From IMG/VR virus record IMGVR_UViG_2690316325_000003: 10,693 bases of DNA; one strand, 5' to 3'. The DNA is from a virus. Lineage: Duplodnaviria > Heunggongvirae > Uroviricota > Caudoviricetes. The notes under the pieces are model-generated. The model ran no database searches, was not told where the DNA came from, and saw only the letters and a program-made list of their open reading frames with translations. Shown here piece by piece: positions 1 to 10,693 of the stretch. Both the position numbers and the translations under genes were made by a program. Each line of letters starts with the position of its first letter. The stretch's first letter is position 1.

Positions 1-98
<98 letters not shown>

Positions 99-99
99 C

Positions 100-399
100 T
101 CAGAACTCCATCTGGATTTGTTCAGAACGCTCGGTCTTGCACACCGGGCGTTTTTTCTTTGTGATTTCATCAAGCGCATACTTAAAAGCCCTGCTAATCG
201 GGCTGATGTCTGATGCCATTCCGAAAGCACACAAGACCGAAGCAATAAATCTCCAGTCCGTTCTGCTTATCTTCGATTCATGACAGCCAATCATCTTTGC
301 CAGACCGCGCTGTGTAAGCGTTGACAGGTTAATGAGTAAATATGTTTCTGCGCGATCAACGTCGCGCTGTGATAGTTTGCTGTAACTTGTTTGTTCCAT
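100..399 (-). CDS. cII: CII-like transcriptional activator (lambda cII family), 99 aa
   Basis: C-terminus ...KKRPVCKTERSEQIQMEF closely matches lambda CII C-terminus (...KKRPAATERSEQIQMEF) as I recall it; N-terminal two thirds diverged. Lies downstream of cro on the same strand, as in lambda. Stop codon is one base from the left repeat. Confidence 0.85.
   Translation of the reverse strand: MEQTSYSKLSQRDVDRAETYLLINLSTLTQRGLAKMIGCHESKISRTDWRFIASVLCAFGMASDISPISRAFKYALDEITKKKRPVCKTERSEQIQMEF
128..156 (+). terminator. oop-like intrinsic terminator hairpin, antisense to the cII 3' end
   Basis: Stem cgctcgg / ccgggcg (7 bp, one G-U) with 9-nt loop followed by TTTTTTCTTT on the plus strand; in lambda the oop antisense RNA ends at the equivalent position inside cII. 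Confidence 0.45.
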
Positions 400-484
400 T
401 TCTTAAGATTTCCAGTAGTGAATAGTTAGTTGAAAGGTATGCGTGGAAACGCATATGGCCTTAGTTGGTCAGATATCTTGGGAC

Positions 485-530
485 TCGCTTTGTCAGCGAC
501 GTAGGACGAATGTCCATTGTGAAAATAGCG
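485..530 (-). promoter_or_regulatory. nutR-like site: boxA-like CGCTATTTT (522..530) and P22-type boxB hairpin tcgc-tgacaaa-gcga (485..499)
   Basis: Read on the minus strand just downstream of the cro stop; boxB loop GACAAA is the P22 type and matches the nutL boxB at 2677..2691. A separate 7-bp palindrome with GGAA loop lies at 438..455. Confidence 0.5.
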
Positions 531-537
531 GTGTTAC

Positions 538-747
<210 letters not shown>

Positions 748-762
748 TTAGTACATGCAACC

Positions 763-832
763 ATTATCACCGCTAGAGGTAAAATAGTCAACACGCACGG
801 TGTTAGATATTTATCCCTTGCGGTGATAGATT
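763..832. promoter_or_regulatory. OR region: OR1 (765..781), OR2 (789..805), OR3 (812..828); PR on minus strand (-10 at 763..768, -35 at 786..791); PRM on plus strand (-35 tagata 804..809, -10 tagatt 827..832)
   Basis: Three 17-bp operators tatcaccgctagaggta / caacacgcacggtgtta / tatcccttgcggtgata match lambda OR1-3 with one change in OR1. The cI ATG at 839 sits at the expected leaderless PRM start. Confidence 0.9.
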
Positions 833-835
833 TAA

Positions 836-1552
<717 letters not shown>

Positions 1553-1559
1553 CACGTAA

Positions 1560-1997
1560 ATGATTAAAGAACGTATTTCTTATATCATTCCGATTGCGAT
1601 GGATGAAGGCAACCCAGTAACTCCAGTTCTTATCTATGAAATGGATAAAGACTCCCATGAAGTGGATCTATCATTTGGCGCTTTTTTTATCGGCCTTAAG
1701 GCTACAAAAAAATATTCCATAGGCATTGAGGTTTTCAATGCTCAAGAAATACCGATACCAATTGACACAAAACTGTACTCCAACCATAAGTTTTTTACGG
1801 TAGCAGAAGCCAACGATGGAGAAACCATCGTATCAACTTCTATGAGAATTAACTTCCCAAGGGTGAAAATTATCAAGCCTGGGATATTCGAAGTTAGAGC
1901 ATCTCTGGTTAATCCTGATAAAGGCGAAGTAATTGATGTAAAAAGTTCGTTTTTTGACGTGAAGATAACAGGATCAGTTCGCGATGAGTTTAGATAA
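1560..1997 (+). CDS. Hypothetical protein, 145 aa, soluble; first gene of the rex-slot cassette
   Basis: Intact ORF starting 7 nt after the cI stop, in the position lambda rexA occupies but with no resemblance to RexA as I recall it; no recognisable motifs; looks AT-richer than cI by eye (not computed). Confidence 0.7.
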   Translation: MIKERISYIIPIAMDEGNPVTPVLIYEMDKDSHEVDLSFGAFFIGLKATKKYSIGIEVFNAQEIPIPIDTKLYSNHKFFTVAEANDGETIVSTSMRINFPRVKIIKPGIFEVRASLVNPDKGEVIDVKSSFFDVKITGSVRDEFR

Positions 1998-2355
1998 CAA
2001 GGTTGCTCAGCTTCGTCCAAATCAAAACATATCTCGCCCAATTGGACACTATTCCACTGATGATGCATACTCACGGCATGGTGGAGGAAACGGCGGAGGT
2101 AACATGCTTGAGGCTAGAGTTGCAAAGCTAGAGTCTGATGTTGAATACATCAAGCGCGATCTCGCTGAAGTAAAGTCAGATATAAAATCTGTAGATTCTC
2201 GTCTGTCAGGTATTGAGACAAGCATTAGCTCAGCAAAAATCACCATCAAGGCATCTGCGGTCGTTGTCAGTTTCGTGTTCGCATTTTGCGCCTACATTTT
2301 TGGAAGTTATGTTTCCAAAATCCTTGATGCCTTAAACGGACTCGTTCTTAAGTAA
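1984..2355 (+). CDS. Hypothetical membrane-anchored coiled-coil protein, 123 aa; second gene of the rex-slot cassette
   Basis: ATG overlaps the end of the upstream ORF by 14 nt (translational coupling). Gly-rich N-terminal stretch (HGGGNGGGN), heptad-like segment LEARVAKLESDVEYIKRDLAEVKSDIKSVDSRL, and one hydrophobic C-terminal helix ASAVVVSFVFAFCAYIFGSYV. Architecture resembles XhlA-type small membrane proteins; not RexB-like. Confidence 0.7.
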   Translation: MSLDNKVAQLRPNQNISRPIGHYSTDDAYSRHGGGNGGGNMLEARVAKLESDVEYIKRDLAEVKSDIKSVDSRLSGIETSISSAKITIKASAVVVSFVFAFCAYIFGSYVSKILDALNGLVLK

Positions 2356-2362
2356 CACACAA

Positions 2363-2389
2363 CCCGGCCTCAGCGCCGGGTTTTCTTTG
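2363..2389 (+). terminator. Rho-independent terminator after the cassette (lambda timm-like position)
   Basis: Stem cccggc / gccggg (6 bp), 6-nt loop, followed by TTTTCTTTG. Confidence 0.6.
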
Positions 2390-2545
2390 CCTCACGATCC
2401 CCTTCACCCAATAACACATAACCAATTGTATTTATTTGAAAATTAATAGATACAACTCACTAAACATCGCAATTCAGATCTCTCGATCACCTCCCAAGCC
2501 ACACCCCCCTGCAAAAAAATAAATCTATATAAAAAACATACAGAT

Positions 2546-2608
2546 AACCATCTGCGGTGATAAATTATCTCTGGCGGTGTTGACATAAATACCACTGGCG
2601 GTGATACT
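2546..2608 (+). promoter_or_regulatory. OL3 (2546..2562), OL2 (2566..2582), OL1 (2590..2606) with PL (-35 ttgaca 2580..2585, -10 gatact 2603..2608) firing rightward
   Basis: Sequence aaccatctgcggtgataaattatctctggcggtgttgacataaataccactggcggtgatact matches the lambda OL/PL region as I recall it; similarity to lambda fades about 20 nt downstream. Confidence 0.9.
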
Positions 2609-2676
2609 AAACACATCAGCAGGACGCACTACTCACCAGGGCGGTGAATATACAACGATTCGAATATGAATCTACG

Positions 2677-2691
2677 GCGCTGACAAAGCGC
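2677..2691 (+). promoter_or_regulatory. nutL boxB hairpin, P22 type (gcgc-tgacaaa-gcgc)
   Basis: Exact gcgctgacaaagcgc in the PL leader, identical to the P22 boxB RNA as I recall it; no convincing boxA seen just upstream. Confidence 0.55.
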
Positions 2692-2856
2692 AATAACCAA
2701 AGTGAACTTTGGGGTGTGGTGAAGGGTTCATGGACGGGAATATGTCGCACGTAAAGCGGCGAGGCCTGCGGGACTATTGCCGAATTGAAGTAGGCCGAAA
2801 CAGGTCGAAATGGGTCTCCCACCTACCACACCACCAAAGTTCATCAGGAGGTCTAT

Positions 2857-3240
2857 ATGACACGCAGAACTCAGTTCAAAGGCAATTCACGTTCTCGTCG
2901 TCGTGAGCGTTTAAAGGCAAAGGCATTAGCTAACGGCGTACTGGCCCGCGAAGAAGCAATAAGTTCAGAAGTATTACACCGCCCTACTCTAAGCAGAGCG
3001 CAGATTCAGGCTAAAGGTACTCACGAAACGCCTGAGCGCATAGAAGACGCTAAGCCAATTAAGTTCATGGCACAGGACGTGATCTGGCAACAGAAAGAAT
3101 ACAGACGCAATCTGGAGCGAGCGGCCATTGTGTACGCGAATGAGTTTGGACATAAGCAACCAGAAACTGGTGTATGTCTTCCAAACGTAGCTCTTTACGC
3201 GGCAGGCTACAGGAAATCAAAACAACTGACAGCGAGATGA
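2857..3240 (+). CDS. N: N-like transcription antiterminator (P22 gp24-like), 127 aa
   Basis: First gene after PL/nutL with strong RBS (aggagg); N-terminal arginine-rich motif RRTQFKGNSRSRRRERLKAKA typical of N-family boxB-binding peptides. Confidence 0.8.
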   Translation: MTRRTQFKGNSRSRRRERLKAKALANGVLAREEAISSEVLHRPTLSRAQIQAKGTHETPERIEDAKPIKFMAQDVIWQQKEYRRNLERAAIVYANEFGHKQPETGVCLPNVALYAAGYRKSKQLTAR

Positions 3241-3277
3241 CGATACCCCGCCAACTAGGGCACTAACCGACAGGAGC

Positions 3278-3421
3278 ATGACCATGAATAACGATAACGA
3301 AGCACTTAAAGAAATGATTGCGAAACTTCTTGAAGATGCCCGCCGCCTTCAGGTAGTGGAGCCAAACGCAGGGACACAATCACGCATTGATGAAGCGATG
3401 AAATTGCTCAAAGCAGAATAA
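3278..3421 (+). CDS. Small hypothetical protein, 47 aa
   Basis: Below the ORF-track size cutoff; preceded by caggag RBS; fills the gap between N and the next gene. Start could be 3284. Confidence 0.35.
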   Translation: MTMNNDNEALKEMIAKLLEDARRLQVVEPNAGTQSRIDEAMKLLKAE

Positions 3422-3455: not shown

Positions 3456-3707
3456 ATGGAATTTCATGAAAGTGCGATTTATGATTTTCGCGCTAACGCA
3501 AATTCAGTAAAACCACTGCCAATTGCAGTTCTTTTTAAAACAATGGGGGCGTGGGCTGTTTTATGCTTCGCCTCTGATGACACTGACGCAAGAATGGCAA
3601 TAAGCCAAGAGATGGAGATGGACCCGACAAACGATGAATTCATAATTTATGGCGCTCCATCTAATTACTTACTTGATACCTGCAACATTTACAACAAGGC
3701 TGCCTGA
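3456..3707 (+). CDS. Hypothetical protein, 83 aa
   Basis: RBS gaggtgag upstream of the ATG; same strand as the PL operon; no recognisable family. Confidence 0.55.
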   Translation: MEFHESAIYDFRANANSVKPLPIAVLFKTMGAWAVLCFASDDTDARMAISQEMEMDPTNDEFIIYGAPSNYLLDTCNIYNKAA

Positions 3708-3765: not shown

Positions 3766-4215
3766 ATGGAAGAACAAGCAAACAAGATTCTCGTAGAACT
3801 ACTGCAAAAAGCCAGTAATGGAATAGACGCGGCTGTTTCATTTAGCCAGGCACAGATTCCTGATGTTGTTCATCAGTTGCTGCTATGGAATATGGTTGAC
3901 AGTCTGATTAAAACATTAATAGCCATTCTAACAATCCCACTGGTTTTCTGGTTTATGAAGAAGCAGTGCCAAAGAGTTGAGACAGGTAAAATCGGTGATG
4001 AAGGATACTCATGTGAGAGGGGAAATCCCAAATACAGGCCGACAATGGTTTGGGATAGCAAAGGAGATATTAACCTTCTTATCGTGCCATTGGTTGGAGT
4101 TTTGACTCTGTGGGGGATTTTTATTATTGGTGTAGTAACCAATATGACTTGGTTAAAAATTTGGCTGGCCCCAAAACTTTACCTTATCGAATATGCAGCA
4201 TCATTGGTTAAGTAA
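3766..4215 (+). CDS. Hypothetical inner-membrane protein, 149 aa (2-3 predicted TM segments)
   Basis: RBS aaggtga; hydrophobic stretches LIKTLIAILTIPLVFWF and LLIVPLVGVLTLWGIFIIGVV; lies where lambdoid phages often carry sieB-type exclusion genes (positional inference only). Confidence 0.65.
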   Translation: MEEQANKILVELLQKASNGIDAAVSFSQAQIPDVVHQLLLWNMVDSLIKTLIAILTIPLVFWFMKKQCQRVETGKIGDEGYSCERGNPKYRPTMVWDSKGDINLLIVPLVGVLTLWGIFIIGVVTNMTWLKIWLAPKLYLIEYAASLVK

Positions 4216-4272
4216 TTTCAGGCCGTATAATCGTCCTTCATTTTTGGCATAAACAACAGAATAAATACTGCA

Positions 4273-4304
4273 CTGTGTATTCATTCCAACGAGTGAATAC
4301 ACGG
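4273..4304. repeat. Intergenic near-perfect inverted repeat (hairpin, 12-14 bp stem, loop caac)
   Basis: gtgtattcattc-caac-gagtgaatacac with one G-T pair, extendable by two flanking pairs; no T-run follows, so not a classical intrinsic terminator. Confidence 0.5.
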
Positions 4305-4403
4305 AGCAATGTCGCTCGTAACTAAACAGGAGCCGACTTGTTCTGATTATTGGAAATCTTCTTTGCCCTCCAATGTGAGGGCGATTTTTTTGACGGAGGA
4401 ATT

Positions 4404-4820
4404 ATGGAAATTACAGATATTCTGGTTAATCCAGATAATTACGACCGATTCAATATCTCTACTCAATCAGTTGATTTGGGTTGCGCAACTGTCAGCGCAT
4501 GGCTACTTAATGGTAAACAGTTGGATAAATGCCTTGATGCACATATGACGGTTAACAGCTTCCTTGCAGAAAAAACACACTGGCAAGATGCTGGAGGGAA
4601 ATATGCTGGATGGCTTGAAAGCATGGGATTTGAATATCAATCTGATGAAGGTTGGTGGAGCCTTATAGCTGTAACGCCTGAGACAATAGAATGCTTCGTT
4701 AAATACTCAAACGACGATGACTATAAACACCAGGTGGATTCTGCGATAGAAAGATACAAAAGAAAATCGTTCAACCACGAAATATCATCAGTTCTTGATT
4801 TCATAGAAATCTTCAAATAA
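4404..4820 (+). CDS. Hypothetical acidic protein, 138 aa
   Basis: The ORF track starts at 4350, but the in-frame ATG at 4404 has a strong RBS (gacggagga) and is the more likely start; Asp/Glu-rich, no recognisable motif. Confidence 0.6.
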   Translation: MEITDILVNPDNYDRFNISTQSVDLGCATVSAWLLNGKQLDKCLDAHMTVNSFLAEKTHWQDAGGKYAGWLESMGFEYQSDEGWWSLIAVTPETIECFVKYSNDDDYKHQVDSAIERYKRKSFNHEISSVLDFIEIFK

Positions 4821-8373: not shown

Positions 8374-8657
8374 TGGACTCCTTCGCGAAATATACGATTA
8401 TTGACTGGATAGCATTCCTTCAGGTTTTGCTCATCTGGTTTTATATGGCTTACAGGAGTGGACAGTGGATTGTCAGTGTAGCCTGTAGCAGGGGATGGCG
8501 TTGGTGGAACCGAAAGAATAAAAAAGCACTGGCCTTGGATTCGTTTTACGAAGCATTCAATCTTAACAGCCTTCAGCCTGGTTCTGTCATTGTAGTCACC
8601 ACTCAAAGCGGCATGACGATACAAATTCACAAGCCAAAGGAGGAAGGTCGTGGCTAA
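8373..8657 (+). CDS. Hypothetical small protein with N-terminal hydrophobic segment, ~94 aa
   Basis: RBS aggagg before ATG 8373 (GTG 8370 also possible); start overlaps the upstream stop; segment IIDWIAFLQVLLIWFYMAY is hydrophobic. Confidence 0.5.
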   Translation: MDSFAKYTIIDWIAFLQVLLIWFYMAYRSGQWIVSVACSRGWRWWNRKNKKALALDSFYEAFNLNSLQPGSVIVVTTQSGMTIQIHKPKEEGRG

Positions 8658-8931
8658 CCTGCAACTTGCCGTCAAAGGTGAATACTTCAACGCCATGATT
8701 CGCGGGGAGAAAACGGAAGAGTATCGCCTGTGCAATGACTACTGGAATAAACGCCTCGTTAATCGTAAGTATGACCGCCTGATTATCACAAAGGGATATC
8801 CGAAGCGCGACGATTCCAGCCGCAGAATTGACGTCCCGTATGACGGATATGAAATCAAGACAATCACACATCCGCACTTCGGCGATAAACCGGTAACGGT
8901 ATTCGCGATAAAGGTGAATATCAATTGCTAA
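8650..8931 (+). CDS. Hypothetical protein, 93 aa
   Basis: GTG start with good RBS (aaggagg, 6-nt spacer); overlaps the upstream stop by 8 nt. Confidence 0.55.
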   Translation: MANLQLAVKGEYFNAMIRGEKTEEYRLCNDYWNKRLVNRKYDRLIITKGYPKRDDSSRRIDVPYDGYEIKTITHPHFGDKPVTVFAIKVNINC

Positions 8932-9316: not shown

Positions 9317-9484
9317 ATGAACTTCCGAGTTACAGGTGAATGGAATGGAGAGCCATTCAACAGGGTTATCGAAGCAGAGGACATCAACGACTGCTATGAC
9401 CACTGGATGCTATGGGCGCAGATAGCACATGCAGACGTAACCAATATTCGAATTGAAGAACTGAAAGAACACCAAGCCGCCTGA
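9317..9484 (+). CDS. Small hypothetical protein, 55 aa
   Basis: Below ORF-track cutoff; weak RBS (ggaga); bracketed by two terminator-like hairpins, so it could instead be non-coding. Confidence 0.35.
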   Translation: MNFRVTGEWNGEPFNRVIEAEDINDCYDHWMLWAQIAHADVTNIRIEELKEHQAA

Positions 9485-9497
9485 TGGCGGTTTTTTA
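9476..9497 (+). terminator. Terminator-like hairpin with T-run
   Basis: gccgcc-tgat-ggcgg followed by TTTTTTATT; lies just upstream of the likely start of the next gene. Confidence 0.45.
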
Positions 9498-9510
9498 TTG
9501 GAGACAAGAA

Positions 9511-9855
9511 ATGTCAGATTTGGCTATGAAGGTTTTGAAATGGCAATCGACTGGCGATGTCGGCATCAGTAGCGCAACTCTTGCCTCAATCGCATGTGGC
9601 CTGAAAAAGAATATCTATGGTCATCACTTCGGCGCTCCACATGACGCAGCCGATTTCCGACGATGCGTTGCACTTGTTGAGCAGATTCCAGAAATCAGAG
9701 ATTCATTCGACAAGGTTGCAAAGCGCGTTCCGGCGTTCAAAGGAATCCTCAACGAATGGGATTCCCTCGTTGCTCTGTTGAAGTCTGAAATGAAGATACA
9801 CGGAAACAAAGCACCAGAGACTTACAGAAGAATCAGCGAGCTACGCAAGGACTAA
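9511..9855 (+). CDS. Hypothetical protein, 114 aa
   Basis: Likely start ATG 9511 (RBS ggaga) rather than 9484, which lies inside the hairpin; no recognisable motif. Confidence 0.6.
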   Translation: MSDLAMKVLKWQSTGDVGISSATLASIACGLKKNIYGHHFGAPHDAADFRRCVALVEQIPEIRDSFDKVAKRVPAFKGILNEWDSLVALLKSEMKIHGNKAPETYRRISELRKD

Positions 9856-10166: not shown

Positions 10167-10680
<514 letters not shown>

Positions 10681-10693
10681 AGCTATAACCCCG

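Follow-up and report, generated by a model that had tools for sequence, protein, structure and literature searches.

What do two small, tightly coupled genes do in the place where phage lambda carries rexA and rexB? The slot downstream of the repressor has already yielded RexAB and BstA, and the cI-N interval is described in PMC8585504 (citing Degnan 2007) as a mosaic hotspot carrying rexAB, bstA and hicAB. In the caudoviral DNA studied here (IMG/VR record IMGVR_UViG_2690316325_000003; "the window" below means its full 10,693 nucleotides) the slot is filled by ORF1 and ORF2, which the initial annotation put forward as a strong candidate for an exclusion or abortive-infection pair and as a candidate new system. 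In enterobacterial prophages the pair turns up repeatedly downstream of many kinds of repressor; on this ground we regard the cassette as a promising, though unproven, candidate for a new module of phage exclusion.

The slot and its boundaries

Operator-like inverted repeat arms lie at 765-783 and 810-828, and a promoter scan finds a PR-like promoter on the minus strand at 791-763; together with the 97.8-98.5% identity of the immunity region to lambda and HK97, this places OR with PR and PRM at 765-828 (no strand assigned). In a lysogen, cI is transcribed from this divergent control region and so, we infer, is the cassette. The cI gene (839-1552, plus strand) encodes a 237-residue repressor of the lambda immunity type (Peptidase_S24, 6.8e-29; HTH_3, 2.6e-11), identical to the cI of the E2348/69 prophage; at the DNA level it matches lambda up to base 1548 with 97.8% identity and HK97 up to base 1552 with 98.5%.

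Blastn homology to lambda ends at 1548 and restarts at 2361, and the corresponding breakpoints against HK97 are 1552 and 2365. The segment between them (1549-2360, plus strand) has rexA-rexB as its counterpart in lambda and gp49-gp48 in HK97; the ORF1-ORF2 cassette is thus a precise swap for either pair between conserved junctions, and the earlier assignment to the exact rexA-rexB slot is correct. The swapped segment also shifts in GC content, with 40.2% compared to 45.5% for cI, 48.4% for N and 44.5% for the whole window. The extent first given to the cassette, 1553-2390, does contain it, but the true swap is 1549-2360, and 2390 takes in a terminator that belongs to the shared flank. This Rho-independent terminator (2361-2392, plus strand), which closes the cI-ORF1-ORF2 unit, has a stem of 8 pairs, 6 of them GC, at 2361-2382, followed by TTCTTTGCCT; it is part of the flank common to lambda, where it follows rexB, and HK97, where it follows gp48. 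A scan of the plus strand from 400 to 3000 gave it as the sole terminator-like site, directly after ORF2. Downstream, sequence reading and the promoter scan identify operators and promoter of the lambda type (2546-2608, plus strand), with OL3, OL2 and OL1 at 2546-2606, 89.5% identical to the lambda OL, and PL at 2580-2608 (TTGACA, 17 nt, GATACT). The order that had been proposed, a near-lambda cI, then two coupled ORFs, then lambda OL/PL, is borne out by these coordinates and by the 97.8% identity. The pair shares with rexA and rexB the cI-OL interval, the orientation of cI and the common terminator.

The promoter scan gave 6 sites inside the cassette, no excess over the 5.2 expected from shuffled sequence, and internal promoters were therefore rejected; an Rfam search of the whole window matched no RNA family. 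Co-expression of the pair from PRM, as put forward initially, agrees with this layout in that there is no terminator between cI and the pair; the layout is one of co-transcription, and expression itself is what we deduce from it. The same flanks are found in lambda, HK97, mEp234/HK106, CL707 and HK244/HK542, all with inserts other than this cassette; in mEp234 and HK106 the slot is filled by the hicAB toxin-antitoxin genes.

Properties of ORF1 and ORF2

ORF1 (1560-1997, plus strand) starts with an ATG 7 nt past the cI stop codon and encodes 145 residues. Its best 19-residue Kyte-Doolittle mean is 0.81, with neither a transmembrane (TM) segment nor a signal peptide, which agrees with its earlier description as soluble and suggests a cytoplasmic protein. 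AlphaFold models it confidently (pLDDT 86.6) as an all-beta protein, predicted to have a generic beta-sandwich fold, and no DNA-binding motif was found in this model. ORF1 falls under no named family in Pfam or NCBIfam. In a BFVD structure comparison the top match came from Anoxybacillus phage A403.

ORF2 (1984-2355, plus strand) overlaps ORF1 by 14 nt, has an AGGA 10 nt 5' of its ATG, and encodes 123 residues; both the gap to cI and the overlap are as initially annotated. Hydropathy and AlphaFold predict a tail-anchored coiled-coil protein of the inner membrane, and NCBI labels it 'hemolysin XhlA'. The glycine-rich N-terminal part, the coiled coil and the single C-terminal TM that had been noticed in it are all present. 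Residues 1-33 (1984-2082, plus strand) form an N-terminal segment that is variable in segment identities over 60 loci; in the AlphaFold model residues 1-36 are disordered (pLDDT <50) and residues 41-122 make up a single helix. The next part, residues 32-88 (2077-2247, plus strand), starts with a glycine-rich hinge (HGGGNGGGN, residues 32-40) and continues as a perfect seven-heptad coiled coil in which 14 of the 14 a/d positions between 42 and 88 are hydrophobic. Hinge and coiled coil are the best-conserved region of the family, with the conserved block ARVAKLESDVEYIKRD, and the coiled coil shows weak matches to trimeric coiled coils. The C-terminal part, residues 92-123 (2257-2352, plus strand), consists of one TM helix at 92-110 (Kyte-Doolittle mean 2.11) and a tail of 13 residues, SKILDALNGLVLK. 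Of 52 distinct homologues, 51 have a C-terminal TM, which comes in several unrelated types of sequence. Within the main type the external tail KILDALNGLVLK is nearly invariant; in the other types 1-8 residues lie outside.

Both proteins belong to PHROG families without assigned function, phrog_5893 for ORF1 (full-length profile, E 8.5e-65) and phrog_6136 for ORF2 (full-length profile, E 3.6e-46). Comparison of ORF1 with gp45 of Salmonella phage epsilon34 gives a dN/dS of 0.10 at 74% amino-acid identity. Because of this dN/dS and the full-length PHROG matches, ORF1 and ORF2 are, judged from their sequences, real genes and no chance ORFs. That they might be chance reading frames or decayed remnants is also countered by the confident AlphaFold model, and the presence of homologues in at least 12 enterobacterial genera refutes it by conservation; we regard the chance of it as negligible.

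Distribution and genomic contexts

A homologue of ORF2 lies directly downstream of an ORF1 homologue in 50 of 51 viral loci, and the ORF1 profile takes in 46 of the 54 distinct genes that precede an ORF2 homologue as its partner. The two genes are close together in 55 of 61 distinct pairs, where the upstream one ends no more than 6 nt from the start of the ORF2 homologue, or overlaps it. ORF1 and ORF2 are an obligate, strictly linked unit. The exhaustive profile search also brought up proteins of 3,360, 3,267 and 743 aa with weak matches to their repeats; as their Pfam domains are unrelated ones, these repetitive proteins were rejected as relatives. The DUF6246 protein that precedes one of the ORF2 homologues (L103) is unrelated to ORF2.

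Overwhelmingly, the pair lies downstream of prophage repressors, and these are of many types, as expected for a pair that belongs to immunity regions. Among 53 distinct upstream neighbours, 36 match HTH_3, 25 Peptidase_S24 and 11 Phage_CI_repr, and 2 are Arc/Mnt-like; all ten that were checked individually are S24/HTH repressors, most of them without BLAST similarity to lambda cI. Further copies in immunity regions include one in a Yersinia cII-cro-cI arrangement, one beside YdaS/YdaT-HTH in Serratia, and one behind an Mnt-like repressor next to the antirepressor Ant; in another locus (L015) an identical ORF1 stands behind a different repressor. Some copies are found inside tail gene clusters, one of them on the opposite strand, which by analogy with HK97 gp15 would be typical moron behaviour.

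Carriage is variable: about 16 of 5,426 E. coli genomes have the cassette, while 618 have a full-length lambda-type cI, and the carriers include EPEC E2348/69 and animal and clinical isolates. Variable presence and sharp mosaic junctions are the marks of a moron or lysogenic-conversion cassette, and so are the deviant GC content, the terminator of its own and a placement predicted from sequence to give transcription in the lysogen.

Modular evolution of the pair

Segment identities over the 60 loci indicate that ORF1 and the N-terminus of ORF2 change together. The paired identities of ORF1 and ORF2 residues 1-33 run 100/100, 74/76, 47/52, 38/36 and ~25/25%, while the coiled coil and the TM of ORF2 vary independently of ORF1. 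We thus read from the sequences that ORF1 and the ORF2 N-terminus co-vary and that coiled coil and TM are shuffled separately, although the co-variation could be a mere effect of physical linkage beside a recombination breakpoint.

Possible functions

Our preferred reading, to which we tentatively give a probability of about 0.4, is a Rex-like exclusion module expressed from PRM, in which a cytoplasmic sensor is combined with a membrane effector. We suggest that the pair is a prophage accessory (moron) module that would be co-transcribed with cI from PRM in lysogeny, its two products being made by coupled translation. ORF2 would be tail-anchored in the inner membrane with its N-terminal ~90 residues facing the cytoplasm, its coiled coil would oligomerise, and ORF1 would dock on its variable N-terminal peptide. 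ORF1 and this peptide may then form the specificity or sensor part, whereas the coiled coil and TM would act as an effector which, when triggered, impairs the membrane; the job of the pair would be a RexA/RexB-like exclusion of superinfecting phages.

This reading is supported by the operon layout, with its 7-nt gap, 14-nt overlap and sole plus-strand terminator after ORF2, by the exact replacement of rexAB, the strict pairing, the varied repressor neighbours and the low GC content, and by the modular shuffling and the retention of a TM despite unrelated sequences. In the phages examined, no placement of the pair suggests a role in lysis or replication. On the other side, no database or experiment ties ORF1 or ORF2 to defence, and one TM followed by so short an external tail does not readily suggest a pore. 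Copies that lie within tail operons and are co-oriented with them might be expressed late, in which case a role in the lytic cycle fits as well as one in lysogeny. What the initial annotation proposed as an exclusion or abortive-infection candidate thus keeps its basis in slot, layout and repressor context, but is weakened by the generic fold of ORF1, by an XhlA-likeness of ORF2 that stays below threshold, and by PADLOC. PADLOC-DB v2.0.0 (models to 2023) gives no match to ORF1, and for ORF2 just CorA-like (E 0.0039) and LmuB (E 0.034), which are coiled-coil noise. In NCBIfam both proteins find noise only, and in Pfam neither rises above the threshold of any family.

The near-invariant tail KILDALNGLVLK hints, from its sequence, at a specific contact on the periplasmic face, which would fit a block at entry better than abortive infection. 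ORF2, with ORF1 as helper, would then stop incoming DNA in the style of P22 SieA, HK97 gp15 or T4 Imm, and the cell would survive. A membrane-anchored protein in a module that would be expressed with the repressor is consistent with this, as are the strong conservation of this tail in the main TM type and the copies in tail gene clusters, the type of site in which the gp15 moron lies. However, all of ORF1 and almost all of ORF2 are predicted to be cytoplasmic and the other TM types expose 1-8 residues, so that hardly anything would face an incoming phage on the periplasmic side; moreover, known Sie proteins are single proteins, and Pfam and PHROG reveal no homology of the pair to any of them. 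We therefore consider entry exclusion unlikely. Somewhat less probable still is that the pair serves as a lysogenic-conversion factor unrelated to phages, a membrane-tethered complex acting on virulence, stress tolerance or the physiology of the host envelope. Host-fitness factors are often encoded by morons, E. coli has tail-anchored proteins that act in stress physiology, such as ElaB and YqjD, and EPEC E2348/69 and animal and clinical isolates are among the carriers; on the other hand, the fast modular diversification of the putative specificity part and the close link to repressors of so many immunity types look more like those of arms-race genes, and the rare, patchy carriage also speaks against such a role.

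The NCBI label of ORF2 leads to a further explanation, in which an XhlA-like, membrane-damaging ORF2 is restrained by ORF1 and the module acts in prophage addiction or in tuning lysis after induction. ORF2 has the XhlA architecture (a coiled coil and one C-terminal TM in ~90-130 aa), 21 of 33 family members match XhlA below threshold (E <0.01, at best 8.3e-6), and in mEp234 and HK106 the same slot is filled by the hicAB toxin-antitoxin pair. Yet ORF2 itself scores only 19.3 bits (E 0.0013) against Pfam XhlA (PF10779), whose gathering threshold of 34.7 bits is reached by 0 of the 33 members, and the coiled-coil family FlaC matches the ORF2 relatives as often, with other coiled-coil families scoring alike. 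The pair was found in repressor operons or tail modules and in no lysis cassette; the ORF2 profile retrieved 80 viral loci, and to the extent that these were examined no holin or endolysin lies beside the pair, and the E2348/69 prophage has a separate lambda-type holin and GH24 lysozyme. As to canonical holins, ORF2 matches phrog_10340 (holin/anti-holin) alone, weakly (E 0.0028) and along its coiled coil, and its TM is at the extreme C-terminus without a holin-type charged tail; type II toxin-antitoxin families gave no matches in Pfam or NCBIfam, and the beta-sandwich of ORF1 lacks the DNA-binding motif of an antitoxin. We judge a lysis-related or toxin-antitoxin-like role improbable, to the same degree as a conversion factor.

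If exclusion by the pair were shown, it would be a third, unrelated, modular two-protein cassette in this slot and a defence family missed by present detection tools. At 145 and 123 aa it would be small and tractable enough for studying how a membrane effector with one TM is governed by a sensor in the cytoplasm, and superinfection patterns of enterobacterial lysogens, among them those of EPEC and Salmonella, would become easier to explain. We may speculate further that with this pair we see the first member of a widespread but so far overlooked, repressor-coupled anti-phage family in prophages of the Enterobacterales, with a swappable sensor (beta-sandwich and partner N-peptide), a conserved coiled-coil tether and interchangeable tail-anchor effectors, possibly descended from or convergent on the Gram-positive XepA-XhlA pair; as a whole we find this rather doubtful. 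Were an XepA-XhlA origin true, a lysis-accessory membrane protein would have been repurposed as an abortive-infection effector. Even if the pair does not act in defence, it is predicted to form a conserved membrane complex of lysogens in pathogens such as E2348/69.

Comparison with known systems

The closest parallel in position is lambda RexA/RexB. Both pairs fill the identical slot from the cI stop to the common terminator, both are presumed to be co-transcribed with cI from PRM, and both combine a cytoplasmic with a small inner-membrane protein. The proteins themselves differ: RexA has 279 aa and RexB is a polytopic protein of 144 aa, while the pair here consists of a beta-sandwich protein of 145 aa and a coiled-coil protein tail-anchored by one TM, and the gap to cI is 112 nt in lambda and 7 nt in the window. 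There is no sequence similarity; up to an E of 1 neither ORF1 nor ORF2 matches a Rex family in Pfam, so that the lack of resemblance to Rex already remarked on is confirmed. Rex has an established function, excluding T4 rII and other phages by depolarising the membrane; the likeness of our pair to it is one of position and layout.

In the B. subtilis prophage PBSX, XhlA is likewise small and has a C-terminal TM after a coiled coil, and its profile weakly matches ORF2 residues 42-88; the adjoining upstream gene, xepA, encodes beta-sandwich domains (PMC6834076), a parallel that favours the lysis-related explanation. In contrast to the repressor operon here, PBSX has these genes in a late lysis cassette with the holin XhlB and the amidase XlyA. 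XepA differs from ORF1 in having 279 aa and two domains, in forming pentamers and in being exported, and neither XepA nor YomS appears in the structural or sequence match lists of ORF1; we take the relation between XepA and ORF1 as an analogy. In the papers searched we found no mention of the ORF1 and ORF2 protein accessions, nor any XhlA-like protein tied to defence.

HK97 gp15, reportedly described by Cumby et al. in 2012 as a small single-pass inner-membrane moron protein, is a comparable membrane moron, and some copies of our pair are also in tail modules; gp15 is encoded by a single gene and is not known to be similar to the pair. BstA of BTP1 and other prophages resembles the pair in lying directly downstream of a prophage repressor, apparently under a common promoter, and its locus architecture is conserved over diverse Gram-negative prophages (PMC8585504). 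Unlike the pair, BstA is one protein, cytoplasmic and associated with DNA; it has an aba site for self-immunity, no membrane part and no homology to ORF1 or ORF2.

True homologues are genes 45/44 of Salmonella phage epsilon34 (also 40/39 of g341c, and in NM-3). Here gp45 is 74% identical to ORF1 and gp44 has the same N-terminus, glycine hinge and architecture as ORF2, with the same 14-nt overlap and the same place directly behind the repressor; the repressor has another DNA-binding domain, and gp44 differs in its coiled coil (39% identity) and in a TM of another type (12%). The pair does stand outside the families of PADLOC, Pfam and NCBIfam, but its description as a new system should be toned down, as both PHROG families exist, the hotspot was known, and genes 45/44 of epsilon34 had already in 2008 been likened to rexA and rexB by their position downstream of the repressor (PMC2629481).

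Boundaries of the cassette

The window carries the early region of a lambdoid prophage in the orientation opposite to that of the usual lambda map. A cII-like gene (100-399, - strand) and cro (538-738, -) are followed by OR (765-828), cI (839-1552, +), ORF1 (1560-1997, +), ORF2 (1984-2355, +), a hairpin terminator (2361-2382, +), OL3-OL1 and PL (2546-2608, +) and an N gene of the H-19B/HK97 type (2857-3240, +); the remainder of the PL operon includes genes for a Rad52-like recombinase, ssb, an Ead/Ea22-DUF551 protein, an excisionase and a truncated integrase. The initial annotation had put a 7-nt gap between the cI stop and ORF1 and a 14-nt overlap between ORF1 and ORF2, and both agree with the coordinates (cI to 1552, ORF1 from 1560; 1997 vs 1984).

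The ORF1-ORF2 cassette, which lies where lambda has rexA-rexB, is a clean mosaic swap. In Blastn, identity to lambda (97.8% from cro through cI) ends at 1548 and restarts at 2361, the end of lambda rexB, while identity to HK97 (98.5%) runs to 1552 and restarts at 2365, just past HK97 gp48, continuing onward through N; these breaks define an exchanged segment of 1549-2360. As a shared junction, the terminator (2361-2382) falls outside the cassette. The sequence after ORF2 (2361-2392) recurs behind lambda rexB and HK97 gp48, and it serves as the conserved right-hand junction for cassette exchange, the left-hand junction being the last few bases of cI. Between the same flanks, other lambda-immunity phages hold hicAB (mEp234, HK106), gp49/gp48 (HK97) or unnamed ORFs (CL707, HK244, HK542). 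The GC content is 40.2% for the cassette and 37.2% for ORF1, compared to 45.5% for cI and 48.4% for N. The BstA paper (PMC8585504), with reference to Degnan et al. 2007, calls the cI-N interval a hotspot of mosaic diversity holding rexAB and bstA.

Outside the cassette, the immunity region (208-3241) is closer to HK97, with identities of 98.5% and 97.6% through the N gene, than to lambda, for which homology ends at 2647, ahead of N; the element thus combines lambda immunity with an N of the H-19B/HK97 type.

Two real but unnamed genes

ORF1 (145 aa) and ORF2 (123 aa) match phrog_5893 and phrog_6136 over their full lengths, both families of unknown function. In Pfam, NCBIfam and PADLOC, ORF1 gave nothing significant and ORF2 only coiled-coil-type noise. 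A profile run exhaustively against 1.84 billion representative proteins had only 19 matches, the credible ones being 131-149 aa long with no Pfam domain, and a broader profile again found only Enterobacterales "hypothetical proteins". Both ORFs are nonetheless genes: compared with its homologue in Salmonella phage epsilon34, ORF1 has a dN of 0.16 and a dS of 1.57, and the resulting dN/dS of 0.10 indicates strong purifying selection.

Among named families, ORF2 matches Pfam XhlA best, with 19.3 bits where the gathering score is 34.7. XhlA was found at E < 0.01 in 21 of 33 family members and an archaeal FlaC coiled-coil family in 23 of 33; we read even the best XhlA value among these 33 (E 8.3e-6) as below the Pfam gathering score of 34.7 bits. 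Many ORF2-family members (P0021 and P0022 among them) carry the NCBI name "hemolysin XhlA", a label that should not be taken as a function. Presumably, the Pfam description "Haemolysin XhlA" conflates the PBSX membrane protein with an unrelated Xenorhabdus haemolysin of the same name.

The features that the initial annotation had read from the two proteins hold up. ORF1 is soluble, and its AlphaFold2 model is an eight-stranded all-beta domain (mean pLDDT 86.6, pTM 0.82). Foldseek matches for ORF1 also include RhoGDI and lipid binders with an ML domain (TM-scores near 0.5), and those in BFVD are uncharacterised phage proteins of similar size; since neither list indicates an enzyme, a binding or adaptor role for the modelled domain would be a reasonable reading. 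ORF2 contains the Gly-rich stretch HGGGNGGGN (residues 32-40), a coiled coil with hydrophobic residues at 14 of 14 heptad a/d positions (42-88) and a single TM segment (92-110) followed by just 13 residues; its model has a disordered head (1-36) and then a single helix (41-122). Comparison of this stalk with trimeric coiled coils (Lpp, the P22 tail needle, designed trimers) gave E-values at chance level only.

An obligate pair behind many repressors

A cassette 99.9% identical to ours is present in a prophage of EPEC E2348/69, with both products (WP_000588958, WP_000050903) annotated as "hypothetical". Of 5,426 complete E. coli genomes, 14 contain it in full and 2 more contain part of it, compared to 618 with a full-length lambda-type cI. 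Among 50,697 phage records, both genes occur in Salmonella phages epsilon34, g341c and NM-3, and an ORF2 relative in three Enterobacter phage records. The epsilon34 homologues are genes 45 and 44, directly 3' of repressor gene 46; their position was called rex-like in the 2008 genome paper (PMC2629481), so the positional observation is not new.

In IMG/VR, an ORF2 relative directly follows the ORF1 relative at 50 of 51 loci, the remaining one being cut off. Seen from the side of the ORF2 relatives (80 loci with 61 distinct pairs), the upstream partner runs into the ORF2 start or stops no more than 6 nt from it in 55 of the 61, and 46 of 54 distinct partners enter the ORF1 family after two profile iterations, with shared motifs in the alignment. 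The two genes form an obligate unit, and what lies next upstream is usually a repressor: among 53 distinct neighbours, HTH_3 was found in 36, Peptidase_S24 in 25, Phage_CI_repr in 11 and an Arc/Mnt-type domain in 2, and the individually checked neighbours were S24/HTH repressors in 10 of 10 cases, most of them without BLAST similarity to lambda cI. Behind one of these ten, at locus L015, stands an ORF1 100% identical to that of the window, which indicates that the cassette moves between immunity types as a unit. Independent genome contexts fit this picture: the order is cII-cro-cI(S24)-pair in Yersinia and YdaT-YdaS, a 127-aa HTH repressor and then the pair in Serratia. At L094, in an immI-type region, the gene before the pair is an 80-aa Arc/Mnt-like one adjoining a KilA-N/P22_AR_C antirepressor.

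According to the initial annotation, a location mostly outside immunity regions would have counted against an exclusion role; most copies in fact stand behind repressors, and a minority sits in tail gene clusters. These lie between a tape-measure-like and a DNA-circulation protein (L101), ahead of a tape-measure gene (L103), on the opposite strand adjoining a gpK-like NlpC/JAB protein (L113) and in the baseplate region of a Providencia myovirus (L136). The distribution is that expected for a prophage-expressed moron.

At locus L043 (IMG/VR 2541047671_000003, 3944-4285), behind a cI 73% identical to that of the window, the ORF1 homologue is cut to 113 aa, with 120 nt between it and the ORF2 homologue; probably, this copy has suffered a frameshift and is decaying.

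Modular evolution of ORF2

We compared three ORF2 segments across 60 loci: the N-terminus (1-33), the Gly hinge with the coiled coil (34-82) and the TM region (83-123). ORF1 identity tracks that of the ORF2 N-terminus almost one to one (100/100, 74/76, 47/52, 38/36, about 25/25), while the coiled coil and TM are uncoupled from it. Relative to the window, the identities for ORF1, N-terminus, coiled coil and TM are 74, 76, 39 and 12 in epsilon34, 99, 94, 45 and 22 at locus L016, and 23, 12, 88 and 85 at locus L074. The most conserved features of the family are the Gly hinge and the block ARVAKLESDVEYIKRD, and a C-terminal TM is kept in 51 of 52 distinct homologues despite at least five unrelated TM sequence types. 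From these alignments we read the pair as a variable unit (ORF1 plus the ORF2 N-peptide) that a flexible hinge would connect to a conserved, putatively oligomerising stalk and an interchangeable membrane anchor. Mere linkage beside a recombination-prone conserved block could yield the same co-variation, and contact between ORF1 and the N-peptide is thus hypothetical.

Possible function

On the account that we find best supported, PRM would transcribe cI-ORF1-ORF2 in a lysogen as far as the shared terminator. Translation of ORF1 may depend on termination at the end of cI by coupling, as suggested by the presence of just a weak GGA upstream of ORF1; ORF2 starts within ORF1, with an AGGA 10 nt upstream. 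ORF2 would be tail-anchored in the membrane and lie mostly on the cytoplasmic side, given that it lacks a signal peptide, that its N-terminal part is long and charged and that the external tails measure only 1-17 residues, and ORF1 would bind to it.

The pair most likely excludes superinfecting phages. We favour a Rex-like sensor-effector abortive mechanism, with a probability of roughly 0.4, because of the slot, the layout and the diversification of the pair. That the pair instead blocks entry seems to us unlikely. Still more doubtful is a role as a toxin-antitoxin or in the tuning of lysis. In the PBSX lysis cassette, xepA, encoding two beta-sandwich domains, lies directly upstream of xhlA, encoding a coiled coil and a C-terminal TM (PMC6834076), the same gene order as here; XepA and YomS were absent from every structural and profile search, and we take the XepA-XhlA analogy, appealing as it is, as a lead only. 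No copy of the pair among the loci examined lies in a lysis cassette. A role in host physiology we rate as equally improbable as the toxin-antitoxin or lysis one.

Other features of the window

The PL operon encodes a further uncharacterised small membrane protein (3766-4215, +; 149 aa) with two strongly hydrophobic segments (about 42-65 and 100-130), which belongs to phrog_3054 (function unknown) and has no match in Pfam; some relatives have sieB in this early-left region. Other PL-operon ORFs (+) fall into PHROG families of unknown function: 3278-3421 (32391), 3456-3707 (2471), 4350-4820 (8967), 8650-8931 (625) and 9484-9855 (1229), and the last four, which were scanned against Pfam, contain no domain. 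A 41-nt direct repeat of 73% identity between ORF1 (1881-1921, encoding GIFEVRASLVNPDK) and ORF 4350-4820 (4398-4438, encoding GIMEITDILVNPDN) is probably due to chance.

The ends of the window (1-98 and 10596-10693) form a perfect 98-nt inverted repeat that matches the end of an IS100/IS21-family element just past istB; this sequence is found on thousands of E. coli chromosomes and plasmids. The integrase ORF (10167-10619) covers only positions 1-144 of a 193-position profile, and its 3' end lies inside this repeat. Either inverted IS copies flank the prophage fragment, or it ends where the contig breaks at a repeat.

Comparison with known elements

This kind of element, a repressor-linked accessory cassette expressed in the lysogen from the rex slot, is already known, and the ORF1-ORF2 pair itself has been noticed before, yet it is uncharacterised and missing from defence catalogues. 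What we add are the precise junctions, how large and how strict the pair family is, its link to many repressor types and to moron sites in tail modules, and the three-module architecture of ORF2 with its co-variation with ORF1. We rate the pair as a good candidate for experiments, not as a discovery.
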